The notes under the pieces: generated by a model
What the model was told of the DNA's origin: nothing
What the model saw: the letters and a program-made list of their open reading frames with translations, nothing else
Databases searched by the model: none
Virus record (IMG/VR): IMGVR_UViG_2690316115_000019
DNA from: a virus
Lineage: Duplodnaviria > Heunggongvirae > Uroviricota > Caudoviricetes
DNA: 11,059 nucleotides
Reading direction: 5' to 3' (one strand)
Position numbers and translations under genes: made by a program
Shown here: positions 928 to 11,059 of the stretch, one piece after another
How the letters are laid out: every line of letters begins with the position of its first letter
How positions within the stretch are numbered: the first letter of the stretch is position 1

Positions 928-1112
928 TGCCAGCATCCTTTTTGTATCGGACGTAAACGGGCCAGCATTGAAAGAATGCATATTTTATTTAATAACTCCC
1001 GTTCGTGTTTTCTCTTGTTAATGGCATCTTCAGTAAATACAGGGTTACTGATAGTGACACCAATTTCAAAACAACCTTCAGACGTATTAACGTTTGGTAA
1101 TAACGTTTCCAT
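924..1112 (-). CDS. dicB: DicB cell-division inhibitor (62 aa)
   Basis: Internal ATG at 1110-1112 of ORF 924..1217 with GAGGA 8 nt upstream. Protein METLLPNVNTSEGCFEIGVTISNPVFTEDAINKRKHERELLNKICILSMLARLRPIQKGCWQ closely matches my recollection of E. coli DicB (MKTLLPNVNTSEGCFEIGVTISNPVF...). It lies about 170 nt downstream of the DicF-like RNA, as in Qin. Confidence 0.75.
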   Translation of the reverse strand: METLLPNVNTSEGCFEIGVTISNPVFTEDAINKRKHERELLNKICILSMLARLRPIQKGCWQ

Positions 1113-1281
1113 TATCGCGTCCTCAACAATGAATTTTGTGATGCAGTGCCTGGTGCCTCCAGGTGACGTTAACCAGTTAACAATTAACGCCGGATACAGA
1201 GAATCCACCCATAACACTGTTTTTGGTTTTAACTGTTCCGCGTGCGCTTAGCCGCATTCACCGCATCACAAAATTCACTTT

Positions 1282-1339
1282 AAAAAGGGCGGCAGAGCAG
1301 TCACGGAGTAGAACTGATACCGCCAAAAGTCACCAGAAA
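1282..1339 (-). ncRNA. dicF: DicF-like small regulatory RNA with 3' intrinsic terminator
   Basis: Reverse complement of 1282-1339 is TTTCTGGTGACTTTTGGCGGTATCAGTTCTACTCCGTGACTGCTCTGCCGCCCTTTTT. This differs at about two positions from the DicF sequence as I recall it and ends in GCCGCCC plus a T-run. Position between a 72-aa gene and dicB matches the Qin dicB operon. Confidence 0.75.
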
Positions 1340-2416: not shown

Positions 2417-2506
2417 ACGCCTCAGGCTGGCTACTTAACCCCTGACCACTGCCGGGTAACTCGAAGTATTGCCCTGCGTTCTGTGGGGCGGGGTGGGTTT
2501 ATGGAT

Positions 2507-2563
2507 ACAATTTACAAATTAAAATTTAACCGGTCAACATGTTTATTATTAAATTTGTAATTG
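2507..2563. promoter_or_regulatory. Operator-like region (OL-like) with half-sites TTACAAAT (2512-2519) and ATTTGTAA (2553-2560), sharing a 14-bp exact match with the immunity-region operators
   Basis: TTAAATTTGTAATT at 2549-2562 is identical to 3791-3804. TTACAAAT at 2512-2519 is identical to 3765-3772. AATTTACAAATT (2509-2520) is itself near-palindromic. It lies upstream of higB and at the head of the leftward dicB-type operon. Confidence 0.45.
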
Positions 2564-2605
2564 CGAGCTGTTGCATCAGTCCCAAAATGGGACTACTATA
2601 CAGTT

Positions 2606-2908
2606 ATGAAGATTATCTCAGTTAAAACACTCAGGGATTTTTGGGCGGAGAATCCTGATGCAGAACAACCGCTAAGGGCATGGGTGGATGAGGCGGCAAA
2701 AGCTGACTGGAAAAGCCCAGCAGACATTAAGGCACAATACCGAACGGCCAGTATATTGAAAAACCGGCGCGTGGTATTCAACATAAAAGGTAATCATTAC
2801 CGTTTAATTGTTGCAATTGCGTATCAGCGAGGATGGGTATTTGTTAAATTCATCGGAAACCACAAGGAATACGATACTATTGATGCTGATACCATCGAAC
2901 TGGAGTAA
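2606..2908 (+). CDS. higB: HigB-family type II toxin (mRNA interferase, RelE/ParE superfamily)
   Basis: 100 aa from ATG 2606. C-terminal pattern FNIKGNHYRLIVAIAYQRGWVFVKFIGNHKEYD resembles E. coli HigB/YgjN (GN..R....V.FIGTHKEYD). It is followed 2 nt later by a HigA-like gene. No clear Shine-Dalgarno, so the start is uncertain (track ORF begins at a TTG at 2561). Confidence 0.75.
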   Translation: MKIISVKTLRDFWAENPDAEQPLRAWVDEAAKADWKSPADIKAQYRTASILKNRRVVFNIKGNHYRLIVAIAYQRGWVFVKFIGNHKEYDTIDADTIELE

Positions 2909-2910
2909 GC

Positions 2911-3270
2911 ATGAACATCAAACCTATTCGTACAGAGCAAGATTATGAAGCCGCGTTGCGTGCTGTTGAACCCATGTTCGACAATGAGCCCGAAATTGAC
3001 ACGCCTGAGGGGGATTTTTTTGAGGTGATGTGTTTGCTAATAGAGGAATATGAAAAAAAACATTATCCCATTGAGCCACCATCCCCAATTGAAGCTATAA
3101 GATTTCGCATGGAACAGCAGGGGCTGACTGTGAAAGATTTGGAACCCGCAATTGGGAAAAAAAATCGGGTTTATGAGGTGTTGAATGGTACCAGAAGCCT
3201 TACGTTACCAATGATTCGCCGTCTTCATAATCAATTTGGTATCCCCCTGGAAAGCCTGGTTGGATTATAA
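2911..3270 (+). CDS. higA: HigA-family antitoxin (XRE-type helix-turn-helix)
   Basis: 119 aa. C-terminal helix-turn-helix segment LTLPMIRRLHNQFGIPLESL resembles E. coli HigA/YgjM (LTLEHAKKLATRFGISPALF). Toxin-first gene order with a 2-nt gap is typical of higBA. Confidence 0.75.
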   Translation: MNIKPIRTEQDYEAALRAVEPMFDNEPEIDTPEGDFFEVMCLLIEEYEKKHYPIEPPSPIEAIRFRMEQQGLTVKDLEPAIGKKNRVYEVLNGTRSLTLPMIRRLHNQFGIPLESLVGL

Positions 3271-3286
3271 AATCTGCTAGTCATTT

Positions 3287-3335
3287 GCCTGATGCTCGTT
3301 CCAGAAAAGGAATGCATCAGGCAGTTTTGTTTTTC
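3287..3335 (+). terminator. Intrinsic terminator after higA; overlaps the 3' end of the convergent repressor gene
   Basis: 9-bp inverted repeat GCCTGATGC (3287-3295) / GCATCAGGC (3313-3321), followed by AGTTTTGTTTTTCT (3322-3335). Confidence 0.55.
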
Positions 3336-3709
3336 TGCCGCAGTAACTCTTCAAGTTTCCGTTTATAGAAATCGCGTTTTTGCTCCATATCACGAATGAT
3401 CTGCTCTGCGTCGCTTTGAGGTAACTCATCTAAAAGCGATATGATTTTTCGTTGTTGTTCTGTAAGTTGCGGTTGGTTGTCATTACTGGATACAGCCATT
3501 TTATCGCCGAGAGTTTCTTCTTCCATAAAGAACCAATGGACGGGATGTTGTGAGAGCTCTGCTAATTTTTCCAGTTTATCCATTCTTGGCATCACGCCTT
3601 TCAACCAACCTTGCACGGATTGGGGTTTTACACCAAGACGTCTTCCCAGCTCTGACTGGTTTATATTCAATTCCTGCAACACCTGCTGAAGGCGTTTTAC
3701 AAAGATCAT
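3317..3709 (-). CDS. DicA/CI-like prophage repressor (N-terminal helix-turn-helix, C-terminal dimerisation-like region)
   Basis: ATG at 3707-3709 with GAGGGG upstream (track ORF starts two GTG codons earlier). Segment NQSELGRRLGVKPQSVQGWLKG is a helix-turn-helix. The C-terminal LTEQQRKIISLLDELPQSDAEQ...KLEELLRQK aligns with the DicA C-terminus as recalled. It is divergent from a Cro-like gene. Confidence 0.75.
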   Translation of the reverse strand: MIFVKRLQQVLQELNINQSELGRRLGVKPQSVQGWLKGVMPRMDKLEKLAELSQHPVHWFFMEEETLGDKMAVSSNDNQPQLTEQQRKIISLLDELPQSDAEQIIRDMEQKRDFYKRKLEELLRQKNKTA

Positions 3710-3763
3710 CACCACCCCTCGTAAACTAGTTCCGCGATCCTACAGAAAAAATTGATAAGTGGC

Positions 3764-3804
3764 ATTACAAATAGAAGTTGAAATTTAAATTTAAATTTGT
3801 AATT
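3764..3804. promoter_or_regulatory. Immunity-region operator/promoter block (OR-like) between the divergent repressor and cro-like genes
   Basis: ATTACAAAT (3764-3772) and ATTTGTAAT (3795-3803) are inverted copies. Tandem AAATTT repeats lie at 3781-3798. A candidate rightward promoter has -35 TTGAAA (3778-3783) and -10 AATTAT (3801-3806) overlapping the right site. GGAGGG precedes the ATG at 3836. Confidence 0.55.
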
Positions 3805-3835
3805 ATCGGTGTCATCGTAAAGTTCGGAGGGAAAC

Positions 3836-4096
3836 ATGCAAAAAAGTACTCAAGTGAAAATCCTGTCAATAATGAGCCAATCAGAATTAGGGCGTCGTCT
3901 TGGTAAAACACCGCAAACCATAAGTGGGTGGTTTAAAAAACGAGTGCCAGCGGAGGAGGTTATACCAGCATGTGAGGCGCTTGACTGGGGAGTAACTCCG
4001 CATGAATTGCGCCCTGATAAATACCCTAATCCAACCGATGGTTTACCTGTTGAGTATCAGGCTAACGCACAAGCAGCGGCGGGAGTTGATTCATGA
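3836..4096 (+). CDS. Cro-like helix-turn-helix regulator of the YdaS/DicC family
   Basis: 86 aa with a GGAGGG RBS. SQSELGRRLGKTPQTISGWFKK...ACEALDWGVTPHELRPD resembles Rac YdaS (recalled). Confidence 0.7.
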   Translation: MQKSTQVKILSIMSQSELGRRLGKTPQTISGWFKKRVPAEEVIPACEALDWGVTPHELRPDKYPNPTDGLPVEYQANAQAAAGVDS

Positions 4097-6277: not shown

Positions 6278-7048
6278 ATGGAAACCGTATCTGACGCACT
6301 GAAAGCACTGAAAAAAGCCTCTTCACATGTGGTGGCAGCTCGCCTTGGAATCAGTCGTGAAGAGGCTGTCAACGAGCTGTGGGAACTCAAAAGAAAAGGC
6401 GTCGTTGATAAAACTGGTCACACCTGGTTTCTGGCTGGCGAAGGTGAATCCCGGGTAACCGAAGAGCGGCCAGTAAAATCTGAAGCACAGGATATGCTGA
6501 CCGGGGAGGTCGAACAAAAAGTTACCGCAGACATGATGATTGAGTTTATCGGTCAGGATGGGGCTAAAACGTGTGAGGAACTGGCGGGTAAGTTCGGTGT
6601 CAGTACTCGCAAGGTTGCTTCCACGCTGGCGGTGGTAACCGCAACGGGGCGGCTGGCACGCGTTAATCAGAGCGGTAAATTTTGTTACTGCATGCCGGGC
6701 GATAATTTACCAGCAGAGTCGAAAGCCGCGCTGGTAACGGAAAATGATGGTAAGGCCTTTCCTCAGCCAGCAGGTGCTGCGTTACCAGTCCGGGAAGCCG
6801 CAACACAGGAAGAAATTAAAACAGAAACTGTGGCGGACATTGTGCAGCCGTTGCTATCGTTTACCGAAACGCAAGCAGATGAGCTGATTTTTCCGTCCCT
6901 GCGCAGGGCAAACCTGGCGCTGCGCAGGGCGAAAAGTGATGTTCAGAAGTGGGAGCGAATCTGCGCCGCGCTGCGGGAGCTGAACAAGCACCGGGATATT
7001 GTTCGACAGATTACTGATTCTTCCCGCCGTGTTGTATCGGAAAAGTGA
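6278..7048 (+). CDS. Hypothetical protein at the ydaW position (two repeated winged-helix-like segments); function unknown
   Basis: 256 aa with a GGAGGAAA RBS. The internal duplication-like segments (VAARLGISREEAVNELWELKRKG and TCEELAGKFGVSTRKVASTLAVVTATG) are my reading only. Confidence 0.55.
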   Translation: METVSDALKALKKASSHVVAARLGISREEAVNELWELKRKGVVDKTGHTWFLAGEGESRVTEERPVKSEAQDMLTGEVEQKVTADMMIEFIGQDGAKTCEELAGKFGVSTRKVASTLAVVTATGRLARVNQSGKFCYCMPGDNLPAESKAALVTENDGKAFPQPAGAALPVREAATQEEIKTETVADIVQPLLSFTETQADELIFPSLRRANLALRRAKSDVQKWERICAALRELNKHRDIVRQITDSSRRVVSEK

Positions 7049-7063
7049 TTGCCGAAGGCGCTT

Positions 7064-7489
7064 ATGGCAAAAGTATTTACACAAGAAGAGCGAGAAAAAA
7101 TTAAAGGGCAGGTTGTTGAGCTAGTACGCCGGAGTGGGCGCGAGACGTTACGGCAACTGGAAGCCAGGACAGGTGCGACAAGATATCTGATGAGCGTTCT
7201 TGCCAGAGAGCTGGTTGCCAGTGGTGATGTATATCACTCTGGCTATGGGTTGTTCCCGTCAGAACAGGCGCGTAAGGACTGGCAAAACGCCCGCAAAAAA
7301 CTCTCGAGGGCAAAGGTGAAGAAACCTGTTGTGGTTGATCCGGGCCTTATCTGGACATTACCCGACGGAGAAATACACCGCTACGACAGGCGTATGAACA
7401 TAATCTGTCGCGAGTGCCGGAAGAGCGAAGCTATGCAGCGTGTACTGGCATTTTATCAAGGAAATGTTAGATATTTTAGACGTTACTAG
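7064..7489 (+). CDS. Protein with Ren-like C-terminal region
   Basis: ATG at 7064 with GAAGG upstream (track ORF starts at a TTG at 7049). The C-terminal ICRECRKSEAMQRVLAFY resembles lambda Ren (KECRQSAAMKRVLAVY, recalled). Position after the replication genes matches ren. Confidence 0.5.
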   Translation: MAKVFTQEEREKIKGQVVELVRRSGRETLRQLEARTGATRYLMSVLARELVASGDVYHSGYGLFPSEQARKDWQNARKKLSRAKVKKPVVVDPGLIWTLPDGEIHRYDRRMNIICRECRKSEAMQRVLAFYQGNVRYFRRY

Positions 7490-7642
7490 ATTAAAGAGCA
7501 TTAGTTCAGATGTGAATTGACATTTTCATGGCGCAGGGTAGAGCCAGCGTGGTTGTCCGCTTTGCGTCAAAACCAGATATTACCAGATTTAGACATATAT
7601 TCCCGATAGCCCTGCTCTGATGCTACACTCTGTGCTATTTTC

Positions 7643-8329
7643 ATGACCCCAATAAAAATATTTATGACTATTGCTGATTTCAAACGGCCTAAATTGGAGC
7701 TTCCAAACGGGGCAAACAAACTACTACTGCACTCTTGCTGTGCTCCATGTTCCGGTGAAGTGATGGAGGCGCTTCAGGCCTCGGGAATCGACTACACCAT
7801 CTTTTTCTACAACCCGAACATTCATCCTCAGAAAGAGTATTTAATTCGTAAGGATGAAAATATTCGCTTTGCTGAACAACACGGCGTGCCGTTTATCGAT
7901 GCTGATTACGACACCGACAACTGGTTTGAACGTGCCAAAGGAATGGAATGGGAGCCTGAGAGGGGGATCCGTTGTACCATGTGTTTTGACATGCGTTTTG
8001 AGCGGACAGCGTTGTACGCTGCTGAAAATGGTTTCAGTGTGATCAGTAGTTCACTGGGCATTTCACGCTGGAAAAATATGCAGCAGGTTAACGAGTGTGG
8101 GCGGCGAGCTGTTGCGCATTATCCGGGTATGGTGTACTGGGATTATAACTGGCGCAAGCAGGGCGGCTCGTCCCGTATGATTGAAATCAGCAAGCGCGAA
8201 AAATTCTATCAGCAGGAATATTGTGGCTGTGTGTATTCTCTGCGCGATACCAATCTACACCGCAAATCTCAGGGACGCCCTCTTATCAAAATTGGCCAAC
8301 TCCACTACGGAAAAGAAGAGAAGGAGTGA
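7643..8329 (+). CDS. QueH-like (DUF208) protein, putative Fe-S epoxyqueuosine reductase family
   Basis: Motifs [11 protein letters not shown] near the N-terminus, CTMCFD mid-protein and [10 protein letters not shown] near the C-terminus fit DUF208/QueH as I recall it. The start could be ATG 7643 or 7664; neither has a good RBS. Confidence 0.6.
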
Positions 8330-8399
8330 TTTTATGGATCACCTTTCTGATTGATTTCATATTGGCGAGGTGACGTGAGTTAAGTAGAATTGCTGCGGG

Positions 8400-8424
8400 T
8401 GCCTGAGGCTGTCTGCCTCAGGCA
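8400..8424. repeat. Perfect 10-bp inverted repeat (TGCCTGAGGC ... GCCTCAGGCA) with 5-nt loop, between the QueH-like and methyltransferase genes; no T-tract
   Basis: 8400-8409 and 8415-8424 are exact reverse complements. No U-run follows on either strand, so it is not a canonical intrinsic terminator. Confidence 0.5.
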
Positions 8425-8507
8425 TGAACACCAAAAGGCAGATAGAGAAAGCCCCAGTTAACATTACGCGTCCTGTAAGACGCTCAACATTAATCTGAGG
8501 CATATGG

Positions 8508-9632
8508 ATGCGGATGAAAGAATTAAATAAATTCAGAGTGATAGACCTCTTTTGTGGGGCAGGTGGATTATCTTATGGTTTTCTTCATGGAGAGATGTCT
8601 GACTACTTTGAAAGTATCCTTGCTATTGATAATAATGCTGCAGCTATAAATACCTACAATGCCAATTTTGGTTTGCATGGAGTTCAGGCAAATATTGAGG
8701 AGTGGGCATCCAGCAATACTGTTCCTGAGGCTGATGTGGTCATAGGTGGCCCCCCGTGTCAGGGATTCAGTTTATTGAATAAGAATCGTTATGGTGATCA
8801 CCGAAGAGCATTGTGGGAGCCTTATATGGATGTCATTGAGCGTTCAAGGGCTTGTATGTTCGTCATGGAAAATGTCCCCGGATTGCTGATAAGCGATGAG
8901 TTTGCGGACATTACGTTTAGAGCGAAATCCATGGGCTTTATTCTGCTTAATCCAATGGTGTTGAATACTGCTGACTATGGAGTACCTCAGACAAGAAAAC
9001 GAACGATAGCAATCGGTATCAAACGAGAACTCTTCGATGTGCATAGTATTCCGGCGTTCCCGCCAGCACCAACGCATCGTTCCCCTGATAAGGATGTCGC
9101 TTTGCCTGAATGGGTCTGTACGCGTGATGCAATTGGTGACTTACCTGCTCCTGTTGGAACTGATATTCGTAATGAACTTCCTCCGCTGAACTTACATTTT
9201 GGGCGTAATCCCACTCCTGTTTCTCTGGAGCGATATAAAGCGGTTCCACCAGGAGGTAACCGTTTCGATTTACAGAAAAAAAGACCTGATATAACCCCGG
9301 CGTGCTGGCTAAAAAAGAAATCTGGAGGGACCGATTTGTTTGGACGTCTGTGGTGGGACAAACCTTCAGTAACGATTCGTACTGAGTTTTTCAAACCGGA
9401 GAAAGGGCGATATTTACATCCGGAAGAGGATCGGCCAATAACTCATCGTGAGGCAGCGAGATTAATGTCTTTTCCTGATAATTTCATTTTTACCGGTTCA
9501 AAAACTGAGATTGCAAAGCAGATCGGGAATGCTGTTCCACCGCTATTTGCGGCAAAAATCGCACAATATGTGTATGGAGTTTTGCAGGGACGGTATAAGA
9601 ATAACATCAGTAAGAATAGTCAAGCAGCCTGA
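8508..9632 (+). CDS. DNA (cytosine-5)-methyltransferase
   Basis: Motif I DLFCGAGGLSYGF, motif IV GGPPCQGFS, motif VI ENVPGL, motif X QIGNAVPP. GAGG RBS 8 nt before ATG 8508. Confidence 0.9.
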   Translation: MRMKELNKFRVIDLFCGAGGLSYGFLHGEMSDYFESILAIDNNAAAINTYNANFGLHGVQANIEEWASSNTVPEADVVIGGPPCQGFSLLNKNRYGDHRRALWEPYMDVIERSRACMFVMENVPGLLISDEFADITFRAKSMGFILLNPMVLNTADYGVPQTRKRTIAIGIKRELFDVHSIPAFPPAPTHRSPDKDVALPEWVCTRDAIGDLPAPVGTDIRNELPPLNLHFGRNPTPVSLERYKAVPPGGNRFDLQKKRPDITPACWLKKKSGGTDLFGRLWWDKPSVTIRTEFFKPEKGRYLHPEEDRPITHREAARLMSFPDNFIFTGSKTEIAKQIGNAVPPLFAAKIAQYVYGVLQGRYKNNISKNSQAA

Positions 9633-9645
9633 AGGAAATCCAGAA

Positions 9646-10524
9646 ATGAATGGAGATTTGGTTGACAGCATAGTTGGTTTTGCTGAAGCCAGAAAGGAGT
9701 TTCATGCCCAATTGTTACTGAATACGCTCACAATTAATACTGCCGGAGTTGTTAGTAACGCAGATAGCAGTAACAAAAACAGTAAAGCTATAGCAAGAGA
9801 AATTGCTCGCTTCTTGCAGGCTGAAACGATTGGTGAACGTGTTGCAGGGCAAACATCTGGTAATCAGTTTGAGAGTATCTGCGCAGAGTTTATAGAAAAA
9901 ACCTTTTTTAAACTCAGCCACTTACGCCCTGGAAAATGGAATGTACATCAGGTTTCTGGTAGAAACAGATTAGAGATAGCTAAATATGAACAATATGCCC
10001 ATCTTATAGCATTGGATAGTGCTGCAAAAAGTAATCCTCAGCTAGCTGCTGCACTGGGGAGTGATTATACGATTTCACCAGATATTATTGTTGAAAGAGA
10101 ACCTGAATGTGATCAAGTTATCAACAGTCCTGAATTACTGGTGGATGATTCTGTTACCCGCATGTCAGCTCTCAGGAGTTCGAATGGTGGGAAACCAATA
10201 TTACACGCAAGTATTTCCTGCAAATGGACAATAAGAAGCGACCGGGCCCAGAATGCTCGTTCTGAGGCATTAAATCTTATTCGCAACCGTAAGGGAAATC
10301 TCCCTCATGTAATGGTTGTTACTGCTGAGCCTACTCCAAGTCGTCTGGCGTCTATTGCTCTTGGTACTGGTGATATAGATTGCGTGTATCATTTTGCGCT
10401 TTATGAACTTATATCAGCAGTTGAAATACTGGGGCTCAGCGATGCAGCTGACATGCTTTCCGTGATGGTTAATGGTAAAAGATTAAAGGATATTTCTGAT
10501 CTTCCCTTGGATCTTGCAGTCTGA
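9646..10524 (+). CDS. Putative type II restriction endonuclease, Cfr10I/NgoMIV/Bse634I-like active-site arrangement
   Basis: ATG 9646 with GAAGGAAA RBS, 13 nt after the methyltransferase stop. The spacing of putative catalytic residues is PD (SPDIIV), then S-x-K (ISCKW) 45-47 residues later, then E exactly 14 residues after the K (RSEALN), as in Cfr10I-family enzymes (recalled). Gene is AT-rich. Confidence 0.55.
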   Translation: MNGDLVDSIVGFAEARKEFHAQLLLNTLTINTAGVVSNADSSNKNSKAIAREIARFLQAETIGERVAGQTSGNQFESICAEFIEKTFFKLSHLRPGKWNVHQVSGRNRLEIAKYEQYAHLIALDSAAKSNPQLAAALGSDYTISPDIIVEREPECDQVINSPELLVDDSVTRMSALRSSNGGKPILHASISCKWTIRSDRAQNARSEALNLIRNRKGNLPHVMVVTAEPTPSRLASIALGTGDIDCVYHFALYELISAVEILGLSDAADMLSVMVNGKRLKDISDLPLDLAV

Positions 10525-10549
10525 CATCTCTACGTAAATAGAGTCTGTC
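10523..10549 (+). terminator. Imperfect hairpin at the endonuclease stop (possible weak terminator)
   Basis: GACATCTCTA (10523-10532) / TAGAGTCTGTC (10539-10549), followed by ATATTTTAA. Confidence 0.3.
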
Positions 10550-10596
10550 ATATTTTAACTGTGATGGCACGTCATTGACTTCAGTACATTTTTACT

Positions 10597-10622
10597 AACC
10601 CGCTTCGCGGGTTTTGTTTTTT
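10597..10622 (+). terminator. Rho-independent terminator closing the cargo island
   Basis: AACCCGC (10597-10603), loop TTC, GCGGGTT (10607-10613), then TTTTGTTTTTT. Confidence 0.7.
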
Positions 10623-10694
10623 CCTGGCATTCTGGTTTACAATCCACACGCCAGCCTGAACAACTGGCACCTGCTGCGCCAGCAGAGACAACCG

Positions 10695-10982
10695 ATGGCG
10701 CACAATACCAAACACCACAATTCTGATGCCGACCCTGCCAGCAGACACGGACGGCGCTCTCACGCATTCAAATATGACTGGTACCAGCATGACCAATGCA
10801 CTGAAGAACAGGCCGAGTGGCTGATTCAGAATTACCGCAGACGTGGATACCAGTTTCAGAAAGGCCTCAATCCTGACTTCCGACACTGGATAATTTCCGT
10901 CAGGCTCCCTTATTCCGAACGCCCGCCGCGTCCGTCCCGCACATATGTAAGCGTCGTCTCAGCACCGTCTGGCAGATCCTGA
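10695..10982 (+). CDS. Hypothetical basic protein (95 aa), unknown function
   Basis: ATG at 10695 within ORF 10614..10982, whose first codons lie inside the terminator. No strong RBS and no recognised family. Confidence 0.35.
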   Translation: MAHNTKHHNSDADPASRHGRRSHAFKYDWYQHDQCTEEQAEWLIQNYRRRGYQFQKGLNPDFRHWIISVRLPYSERPPRPSRTYVSVVSAPSGRS

Positions 10983-11059
10983 AATTCCTGAGAGAATAGT
11001 GGACACCAAATATGGTGGACGCTATCCATGAAATCATTAACCGCAGTGCGTAAAAAAAG

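Follow-up and report, generated by a model that had tools for sequence, protein, structure and literature searches.

An 11,059 nucleotide (nt) stretch of viral DNA (IMG/VR record IMGVR_UViG_2690316115_000019), referred to below as the window, is the early region of an Escherichia coli lambdoid prophage of the Rac/Qin type, and carries three genes on the same strand between the end of a DUF977 gene (position 7489) and a hairpin at 10597–10613. These genes encode a QueH-family epoxyqueuosine reductase, a C5 cytosine DNA methyltransferase and a type II restriction endonuclease of the NgoMIV family. The region very probably represents two unrelated pieces of cargo in neighbouring slots that were filled independently, rather than a single island, and in all likelihood the adjacency of queH and the restriction-modification (R-M) pair reflects the architecture of the phage genome and not a shared function. 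The first slot would hold an intact and strongly constrained queH gene, taken with an upstream region of ~50 nt from an enterobacterial chromosome. The second slot is normally occupied by a hokD/sok type I toxin-antitoxin locus, and here a single recombination appears to have exchanged the mok/hokD coding part for the operon encoding the methyltransferase (M) and the endonuclease (R), leaving this operon behind the hok promoter and leader and before the hok terminator, with the methyltransferase start codon at the former mok start. The features are listed in Table 1.

Table 1. Features of the cargo region and its borders (window coordinates)
Feature	Coordinates	Strand	Evidence
DUF977 / 'Ren-like exclusion protein' gene	7064..7489	+	Pfam PF06163 1.2e-27; PHROGs phrog_142 2.6e-45; RefSeq coding sequence
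queH cassette	7548..8335	+	blastn of window against L003 and L087; ~93% nt identity between different prophage backbones
Putative extended -10 element TGCTACACT for queH	7621..7629	+	~35 nt upstream of ATG; conservation
queH, epoxyqueuosine reductase (DUF208 family), 221 amino acids	7664..8329	+	Pfam PF02677 1.1e-65; RefSeq name
hokD promoter, retained (TTGGCG, 17 nt spacer, TAGAAT)	8362..8390	+	promoter scan
hok mRNA leader, first ~105 nt (Sok-complementary; sok remnant)	8397..8501	+	Rfam RF01794
R-M cassette replacing 287-base pair mok/hokD/fbi segment	8502..10595	+	left and right junction alignments
C5 cytosine DNA methyltransferase, 372 amino acids	8514..9632	+	Pfam PF00145 4e-54 (184.6 bits)
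NgoMIV-family type II restriction endonuclease, 292 amino acids	9646..10524	+	Pfam PF09015 1e-126, 422 bits
Intrinsic terminator (native hokD terminator, retained)	10597..10622	+	7-base pair stem (5 GC), 3-nt loop, T-run
Small conserved phage gene (phrog_1212), ahead of DUF968-RusA-Q	10695..10967	+	RefSeq coding sequence; PHROGs 1.7e-32

The sequence between positions 7400 and 10700 was found to be 100% identical to the chromosomes of E. coli E110019 and two other strains, and the RefSeq names given to this identical DNA agree with the profile searches made here for all three cargo genes. The identities proposed for these genes in an earlier note on this DNA were therefore upheld (matches to PF02677, PF00145 and PF09015).

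The distribution of the two pieces was examined in 5,426 complete E. coli genomes, where queH was found in 995 (18%) and the R-M pair, which is 17-fold rarer, in 60. The two adjoin each other in 57 genomes. A query spanning the 3′ end of queH and the hokD locus (coverage ≥80%) revealed queH followed by hokD in at least 741 genomes, and the usual order of genes at the locus is DUF977, queH, hokD, small gene, DUF968, RusA and Q. QueH is also encoded by 190 contigs in IMG/VR. An identical QueH is present on 80 viral contigs, and hokD lies downstream of it at 53 of these 80 loci and the R-M pair at 20. A prophage in strain A34 (locus L004) carries the same R-M cassette without queH, and the slot that separates DUF977 from the hok locus varies in content, with a gene for an alpha/beta hydrolase in an O157:H7 prophage. 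In A34, the slot before the hok leader (L004 1866–3501) contains a sce7726-family gene overlapping a convergent Beta-protein gene (PF14350, 2e-52), which may be another defence-type pair.

Pairwise comparisons gave the queH and R-M cassettes the separate boundaries shown in Table 1, with the hok upstream region and leader between them (~8332–8501) and the terminator and backbone from 10596. The DUF977 gene is the last backbone gene on the replication side and bounds the variable slot on its left, as homology to the backbone of prophages that lack queH ends at ~7455–7465 and restarts at ~8343. A second backbone, which includes that of phage HannyBb (L003 3735–3920; L087 3741–3947), has a truncated methyltransferase fragment between DUF977 and queH, suggesting that in that backbone a different methylase gene was largely replaced by the queH cassette.

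The two pieces also differ in G+C (GC) content. Values for four genes on the replication side are 51.8, 52.2, 52.8 and 49.7%, and queH, at 47.9% with 51.8% at third codon positions (GC3), resembles the backbone. Values for the methyltransferase gene (GC 44.0%, GC3 36.5%) and the endonuclease gene (GC 41.6%, GC3 30.0%) are lower, and the R-M pair is the only compositionally foreign part. GC content is not uniform across the region, as had been anticipated, and ranges in 300-nt segments from 39.7% inside the endonuclease gene to 55.7% in the replication genes. The earlier note had described all three genes as an AT-rich island, a description that fits the R-M pair, which is ~8–10 points lower in GC, and does not fit queH; its hand-estimated gap of ~23 points (35% versus 58%) was too wide, the measured contrast being ~8–10 points. 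Its view of the R-M pair as a horizontally acquired moron is supported by the low GC and GC3, by the presence of the pair in only 60 of the 5,426 genomes, and by identity of >99% across unrelated serotypes, the carriers being prophages of O157:H7, O111, O103, O39 and other strains.

The genetic context of queH was surveyed further at 80 species-representative loci, and none of the 80 adjoins an R-M system. The neighbours of chromosomal queH genes are unrelated housekeeping genes, and the DUF977-prophage context was seen only in E. coli and E. albertii among the surveyed loci. A recurrent pairing of queH with C5 methyltransferases had also been considered. The only recurrent adjacency of this kind outside E. 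coli involves three of the 80 loci, from related species of Erwinia/Pantoea (L012, L016, L018), in which a divergent dcm-vsr pair (PF00145, 8e-76, with PF18284; PF03852, 3e-35) lies ~0.2–1.5 kilobases (kb) upstream of the chromosomal queH. As the methyltransferase there is an orphan dcm accompanied by the vsr repair nuclease, and not part of an R-M system, recurrent pairing was rejected.

The R-M pair is located inside a gutted hokD/sok locus, a context that had been overlooked in the earlier note. The promoter retained ahead of the pair is the same as that of an intact hokD locus (L002 4720–4748), and its end is 6 nt short of position 1 in the Rfam sok family, a model of the sense-oriented hok mRNA leader. 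The leader that follows ends at the mok Shine-Dalgarno sequence GAGG (8497–8500). The match to RF01794 (8397–8577) scored 61 bits (gathering score 59), with only the first ~89 of 157 model positions, to 8501, aligning well; intact hokD loci scored 115–120 bits. At the left junction (8501/8502), identity with two intact hokD loci extends through TTAATCTGAGGC, ending in CTGAGGC, beyond which the hokD loci have the mok start followed by hokD, whereas the window has ATATGGATGCGGATGAAAG, with which the methyltransferase begins. The methyltransferase start is either that given by RefSeq (8514) or an in-frame ATG at 8508, 7 nt past the mok Shine-Dalgarno sequence. At the right junction, homology to L002 restarts at 10596 (L002 5148), at the terminator hairpin. 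No mok/hok reading frame is present between the mok start and the terminator in the alignment with the two hokD loci, as it has been replaced; the 287 base pairs (bp) lost correspond to mok, hokD and the 3′ fold-back element (fbi) that pairs with the 5′ end of the hok mRNA. The promoter, the 105-nt leader and the terminator that were retained share 90–98% identity with hokD loci. The locus lies where lambdoid hokD/sok loci do, immediately ahead of the small gene, DUF968, RusA and Q, but has 2.1 kb of R-M genes in place of mok/hok, fbi and the presumed sok promoter. The locus is no longer a hok/sok system.

A strong terminator had been reported previously at the right end of the region, and the hairpin (10597–10613) and T-run (to ~10622) are indeed present; what had been missed is that this is the hok terminator. 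It is the only terminator-like site in 7000–11059, although shuffled sequences average 3.1 such sites and the count alone is not significant. It was taken as real because it is homologous to the terminator of the intact hokD locus (L002 5149–5176). RNA folding at the junction between the hok leader and the methyltransferase gene gave z = -3.4, a value that is uninformative on the accessibility of the ribosome-binding site.

A 131-nt query spanning the left junction was covered to ≥80% in exactly 60 genomes, which are all 60 carriers of the R-M pair, and A34, which lacks queH, has the same junction. The identical junction in 60 of 60 carriers indicates that a single event made the R-M cassette, which was then probably spread by recombination through the flanking hok sequences. 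The sok promoter, which we take to lie within the lost segment by analogy with hok/sok of plasmid R1, would have been lost with it, and because the segment expected to hold this promoter is gone, transcription of the R-M operon from the hok promoter is probably constitutive.

The methyltransferase was further matched by TIGR00675 (5e-45; 154.5 bits, cut-off 100.65) and by the PADLOC MTase_II profile (9e-88). The motifs FCGAGG, PPCQGFS, ENV, QTRKR and GNAVPP are present and invariant in an alignment of homologues, and account for all of the C5-methyltransferase motifs I (FxGxG), IV (PCQ), VI (ENV), VIII (QxRxR) and X (GNxVP). The protein belongs to a lineage of ~370 amino acids (aa) common in Gammaproteobacteria, and its gene ends 13 nt upstream of the endonuclease gene. 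The endonuclease spans profile positions 1–275 of 275 in PF09015 and matches PADLOC REase_II (8e-126), and no NCBIfam match was found for it. In a comparison with NgoMIV in PDB entry 1fiu (9.6e-119), PDIIV is conserved and the block SISCKWTIRSDRAQNARSE is identical.

NgoMIV from Neisseria gonorrhoeae (PDB 1FIU) cuts at G^CCGGC. As the window endonuclease shares 66% aa sequence identity with NgoMIV and has an identical recognition block (K..RSDR..E), its target is likely also G^CCGGC. Endonucleases of NgoMIV-family systems on IncP and other plasmids are closer (75–79% identity), and their genes are likewise ordered M then R. However, these plasmid copies have a GC content of 63%, compared with 42–44% for the window pair, and the 318-aa methyltransferases of the Neisseria and plasmid systems share only 23–25% identity with the 372-aa methyltransferase in the window (23% for the protein encoded ahead of NgoMIV in N. 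gonorrhoeae, and 25% for the plasmid copies), and are not orthologous to it. The window pair also differs from NgoMIV systems in being located in a prophage, inside a hok scaffold.

The same M and R pair was identified in a lambdoid prophage of Klebsiella michiganensis, with M 79% and R 80% identical to those in the window. The Klebsiella pair is also AT-rich and is located just before DUF968 and Q, and the hok leader is absent from that locus. The similar levels of identity indicate that the M and R genes have moved together for some time. Ratios of nonsynonymous to synonymous substitution rates (dN/dS) between two E. coli alleles were 0.14 for M and 0.10 for R, and both reading frames are intact in all 60 genomes, with no pseudogene flags; the pair is thus predicted to be active. 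On the basis of the enzyme families, it would methylate and cut at or around GCCGGC, and could both defend the lysogen against DNA entering the cell and make the prophage more stable. The window contains one GCCGGC site where two to three are expected, a number that is uninformative on site avoidance.

HNH endonucleases are the partners of methyltransferases that are 66–76% identical to this one and conserved in the target-recognition region, in a P2-like prophage of Yersinia kristensenii (L097 4001–6092) and in Idiomarina (L098/L099 4001–6073), so that a single methylation specificity seems to work with nucleases of two unrelated families. Next to the Yersinia HNH pair are HicB and a gene of the PvuRts1I/SRA type.

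Prophage-borne R-M systems are well known. The PstI-like system in the Stx2 phage of E. coli O104:H4 is also a type II R-M system in a lambdoid early region, where it confers lysogen-specific methylation and probably defence against superinfection. The window system differs from it in enzyme families and predicted target, and in its use of the signals of a displaced toxin-antitoxin locus.

The product of queH matches PF02677 with 221.5 bits (cut-off 23.5), residues 27–201 corresponding to profile positions 1–174 of 175. It is similar to Thermotoga maritima QueH (PDB 7lc5; 7.6e-22 over 177 residues with two small gaps), and to PDB entries 9dco and 9d86 (E ~1e-21). The segments HSCCAPC, RCTMC and YCGCV align with C9/C10, C87/C90 and C169/C171 of the T. 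maritima enzyme, and all six aligned cysteines are kept (C25/C26, C104/C107 and C187/C189 of the 221-aa protein). These motifs (CC..C, CxxC and CxC) are unchanged in prophage and chromosomal orthologues. The window protein is therefore like T. maritima QueH in being a full-length PF02677 match with the complete cysteine set, but its gene is found on a lambdoid prophage, and on the isolated phage HannyBb, and the host has QueG of its own. The assignment to DUF208 made in the earlier note was confirmed by the profile match and the alignment of the cysteine motifs, and the claim that the prophage gene encodes an intact enzyme is supported by the retained cysteines and by a dN/dS of 0.04, which indicates strong purifying selection (two prophage alleles with 6.5% nt difference). 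Two of the start positions given there were revised. The queH start is most likely 7664 and not 7643, as 7664 is the RefSeq start and chromosomal orthologues all begin with MT(I/T)ADFKRP (here MTIADFKRP), and the endonuclease starts at 9646 and not at the TTG at 9511.

QueH shares 75–92% aa identity with chromosomal QueH from many Proteobacteria, among them Scandinavium, Kluyvera, Enterobacter, Serratia, Dickeya, Pseudomonas and Sphingomonas. DNA homology to the Scandinavium chromosome reaches 50 nt upstream of the queH start, and the sequence ATGCTACA.T is invariant in two prophage alleles and in the chromosomal queH upstream regions from Scandinavium, Enterobacter and Symbiopectobacterium, where the surrounding sequence has diverged. 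This element has the extended -10 form TGnTAnnnT. The upstream homology and the conserved TGCTACACT suggest that queH was captured with its own promoter and may be expressed as a moron, most likely being transcribed on its own in the lysogen.

A route to queuosine that is independent of vitamin B12 is a plausible role for the prophage QueH, and the most economical one, because the host enzyme QueG needs cobalamin and E. coli cannot make cobalamin de novo. QueH would convert epoxyqueuosine (oQ) to queuosine (Q) in tRNA-Asp, tRNA-Asn, tRNA-His and tRNA-Tyr without cobalamin, and would so back up QueG. The cobalamin dependence of E. coli QueG has been reported (PMC4646009; PMC11841063). It is proposed, tentatively and at somewhat less than even likelihood, that queH, with its own promoter, serves as an auxiliary gene of lambdoid phages in E. 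coli and E. albertii, giving about one fifth of sequenced E. coli a cobalamin-independent completion of queuosine, and that the R-M operon depends for its transcription and translation on the signals of the displaced hok toxin, in a like-for-like swap of addiction modules. Expression and activity of all three genes are predictions made from the sequence.

Several observations weigh against parts of this proposal. QueH residue 29 is a cysteine (CCAPC) where T. maritima QueH has Asp13 (CCAPD), which is presumably a ligand of an extra iron; the cysteine is common to all close proteobacterial homologues examined and is probably normal family variation. No NCBIfam model matches this QueH. A simple -35/-10 scan flagged no promoter for queH, and the case for the extended -10 element is its conservation. 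For E. coli, no phenotype of oQ versus Q is known. On the R-M side, the methyltransferase is not an orthologue of M.NgoMIV, so that its specificity would follow only from its stable pairing with the endonuclease, and close relatives of it are also paired with HNH nucleases. Loss of the sok promoter is argued from the plasmid R1 paradigm, and the simple promoter scan, which missed the sok promoter even in intact hokD loci, cannot show its loss.

Other explanations for the region were weighed against this proposal. The adjacency of queH and the R-M pair on the same strand in 57 genomes, together with the finding that 7-deazaguanine derivatives protect phage DNA from restriction (PMC6884629), might suggest that the three genes are one acquired island in which QueH is functionally coupled to R-M, for example by providing a modified base for restriction or self-protection. 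This possibility is already largely refuted by the distribution, as queH, by far the commoner of the two, normally has hokD behind it, the R-M cassette is present without queH in both A34 and Klebsiella, and none of the 80 surveyed queH loci adjoins an R-M system. Moreover, the annotation of the E110019 prophage, read from the integrase to the tail fibres apart from ~350 bp (record 2637001–2637311) holding the holin gene, contains no genes for 7-deazaguanine pathways (dpdA/TGT, queCDE or preQ0), making a role of queH in 7-deazaguanine DNA modification unlikely. The single three-gene island of the earlier note was therefore rejected on distribution, composition and module boundaries, and the functional link between queH and R-M, which that note had left open, is considered extremely improbable.

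It is also unlikely, though less remote, that the prophage QueH has some other role, such as action on another substrate, a change of wobble base that counters an anticodon nuclease or colicin, or tuning of translation during lytic growth only. The host already has QueG, loss of which has no known growth phenotype (PMC11841063), queH is in the early-right operon with no terminator between 7000 and 10597 and would also be transcribed on induction, and PHROGs lists the QueH family as of unknown function. However, the protein is 75–92% identical to chromosomal QueH where this is a housekeeping enzyme, it keeps all of the cysteine motifs, its dN/dS fits the constraint on chromosomal copies, and the kept chromosomal upstream element points to unchanged regulation and function. 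The R-M pair might in turn not be an active restriction system, but a remnant in which only the methyltransferase functions, or mainly an addiction module without a part in phage defence. The cassette took the place of an addiction module and has no controller protein, its methyltransferase is not the M.NgoMIV orthologue, and the E110019 copy of the prophage is probably defective, with frameshifts in the portal and integrase genes and a stop codon inside the terminase gene. Against this, both reading frames are intact in every carrier and under constraint, the catalytic and recognition block of the endonuclease is identical to that of NgoMIV, and the pair has co-diverged with the Klebsiella copy, so that an inactive or purely addictive pair is given a low probability.

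The three proteins are ordinary members of known families that are already named in RefSeq. Less ordinary are the presence of queH on a phage and the exchange of a hok toxin for an R-M operon within its promoter and terminator scaffold, although neither alters the understanding of these systems. Literature searches turned up no account of a queH gene in a prophage or of an R-M system within a hok locus. No homologues of QueA, QueG or QueH were present in the viruses analysed by Hutinet et al. in 2019 (PMC6884629), consistent with the description of queH in the earlier note as a gene not expected in a phage; yet it is often carried by lambdoid prophages of E. coli, and RefSeq already names it. 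It is also present in the isolated Escherichia phage HannyBb (96.8% identity), where it is annotated as hypothetical.

If the proposed role of QueH is correct, this would be the first queuosine-specific, and hence tRNA-specific, step on a phage, and lysogeny would, when B12 is in short supply, alter the modification state of tRNA and with it the way in which NAU/NAC codons are decoded. A selectively maintained phage queH in 18% of complete E. coli genomes raises the questions of whether lysogeny lifts the B12 dependence of the last step to Q, and of whether oQ versus Q affects fitness or phage gene expression. The R-M operon in the hok locus illustrates the exchange of defence and addiction cassettes within a conserved scaffold, followed by spread through homologous recombination between unrelated prophages, and the use of one methyltransferase lineage with two unrelated nuclease families. 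For annotation, the region should be treated as two morons in two neighbouring variable slots, the adjacency of which tells nothing of a shared function.

The order of genes in RefSeq begins with dicB, ydfABC, a repressor, a YdaT-family protein, a replication initiator and a DnaC-like ATPase, and continues through DUF1627, DUF977, QueH, the DNA cytosine methyltransferase and the NgoMIV-family endonuclease to a small hypothetical gene, DUF968 and RusA, with the lysis cassette further on. The label 'Ren-like' used for the DUF977 protein in the earlier note is the PHROGs database name of the family it matches (phrog_142), the Pfam label for the same protein being DUF977, and an exclusion function is predicted from this membership. 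At the other border, where the backbone resumes, the product of the small gene shares ~80% aa identity (79.8%, tblastn) with that of the gene following hokD in L002.

A gene for the DicF small RNA was identified in the window at 1287–1338 on the minus strand (Rfam RF00039, 71.5 bits), and together with dicB and ydfABC in the related record identifies the prophage as Qin/Rac-type. A weak STnc100-like match lies beside it (1080–1289, minus strand; 34.7 bits, under the gathering score). A HigB toxin gene is located at 2561–2908 on the plus strand (PF09907, 8e-33; PADLOC PD-Lambda-2_A, 1e-40), followed at 2911–3270 on the same strand by a helix-turn-helix antitoxin-like gene whose match to PD-Lambda-2_B is confined to positions 1–119 of 402. 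A comparison with the E110019 copy of the prophage found nothing similar to this stretch (~2500–4081). That copy (L088/L089; record 2,610,000–2,660,500) has an IS3 element further left, between dicB and ydfC, adjoins a tRNA-Ser gene, and carries the effector genes nleH and nleF at its tail end.

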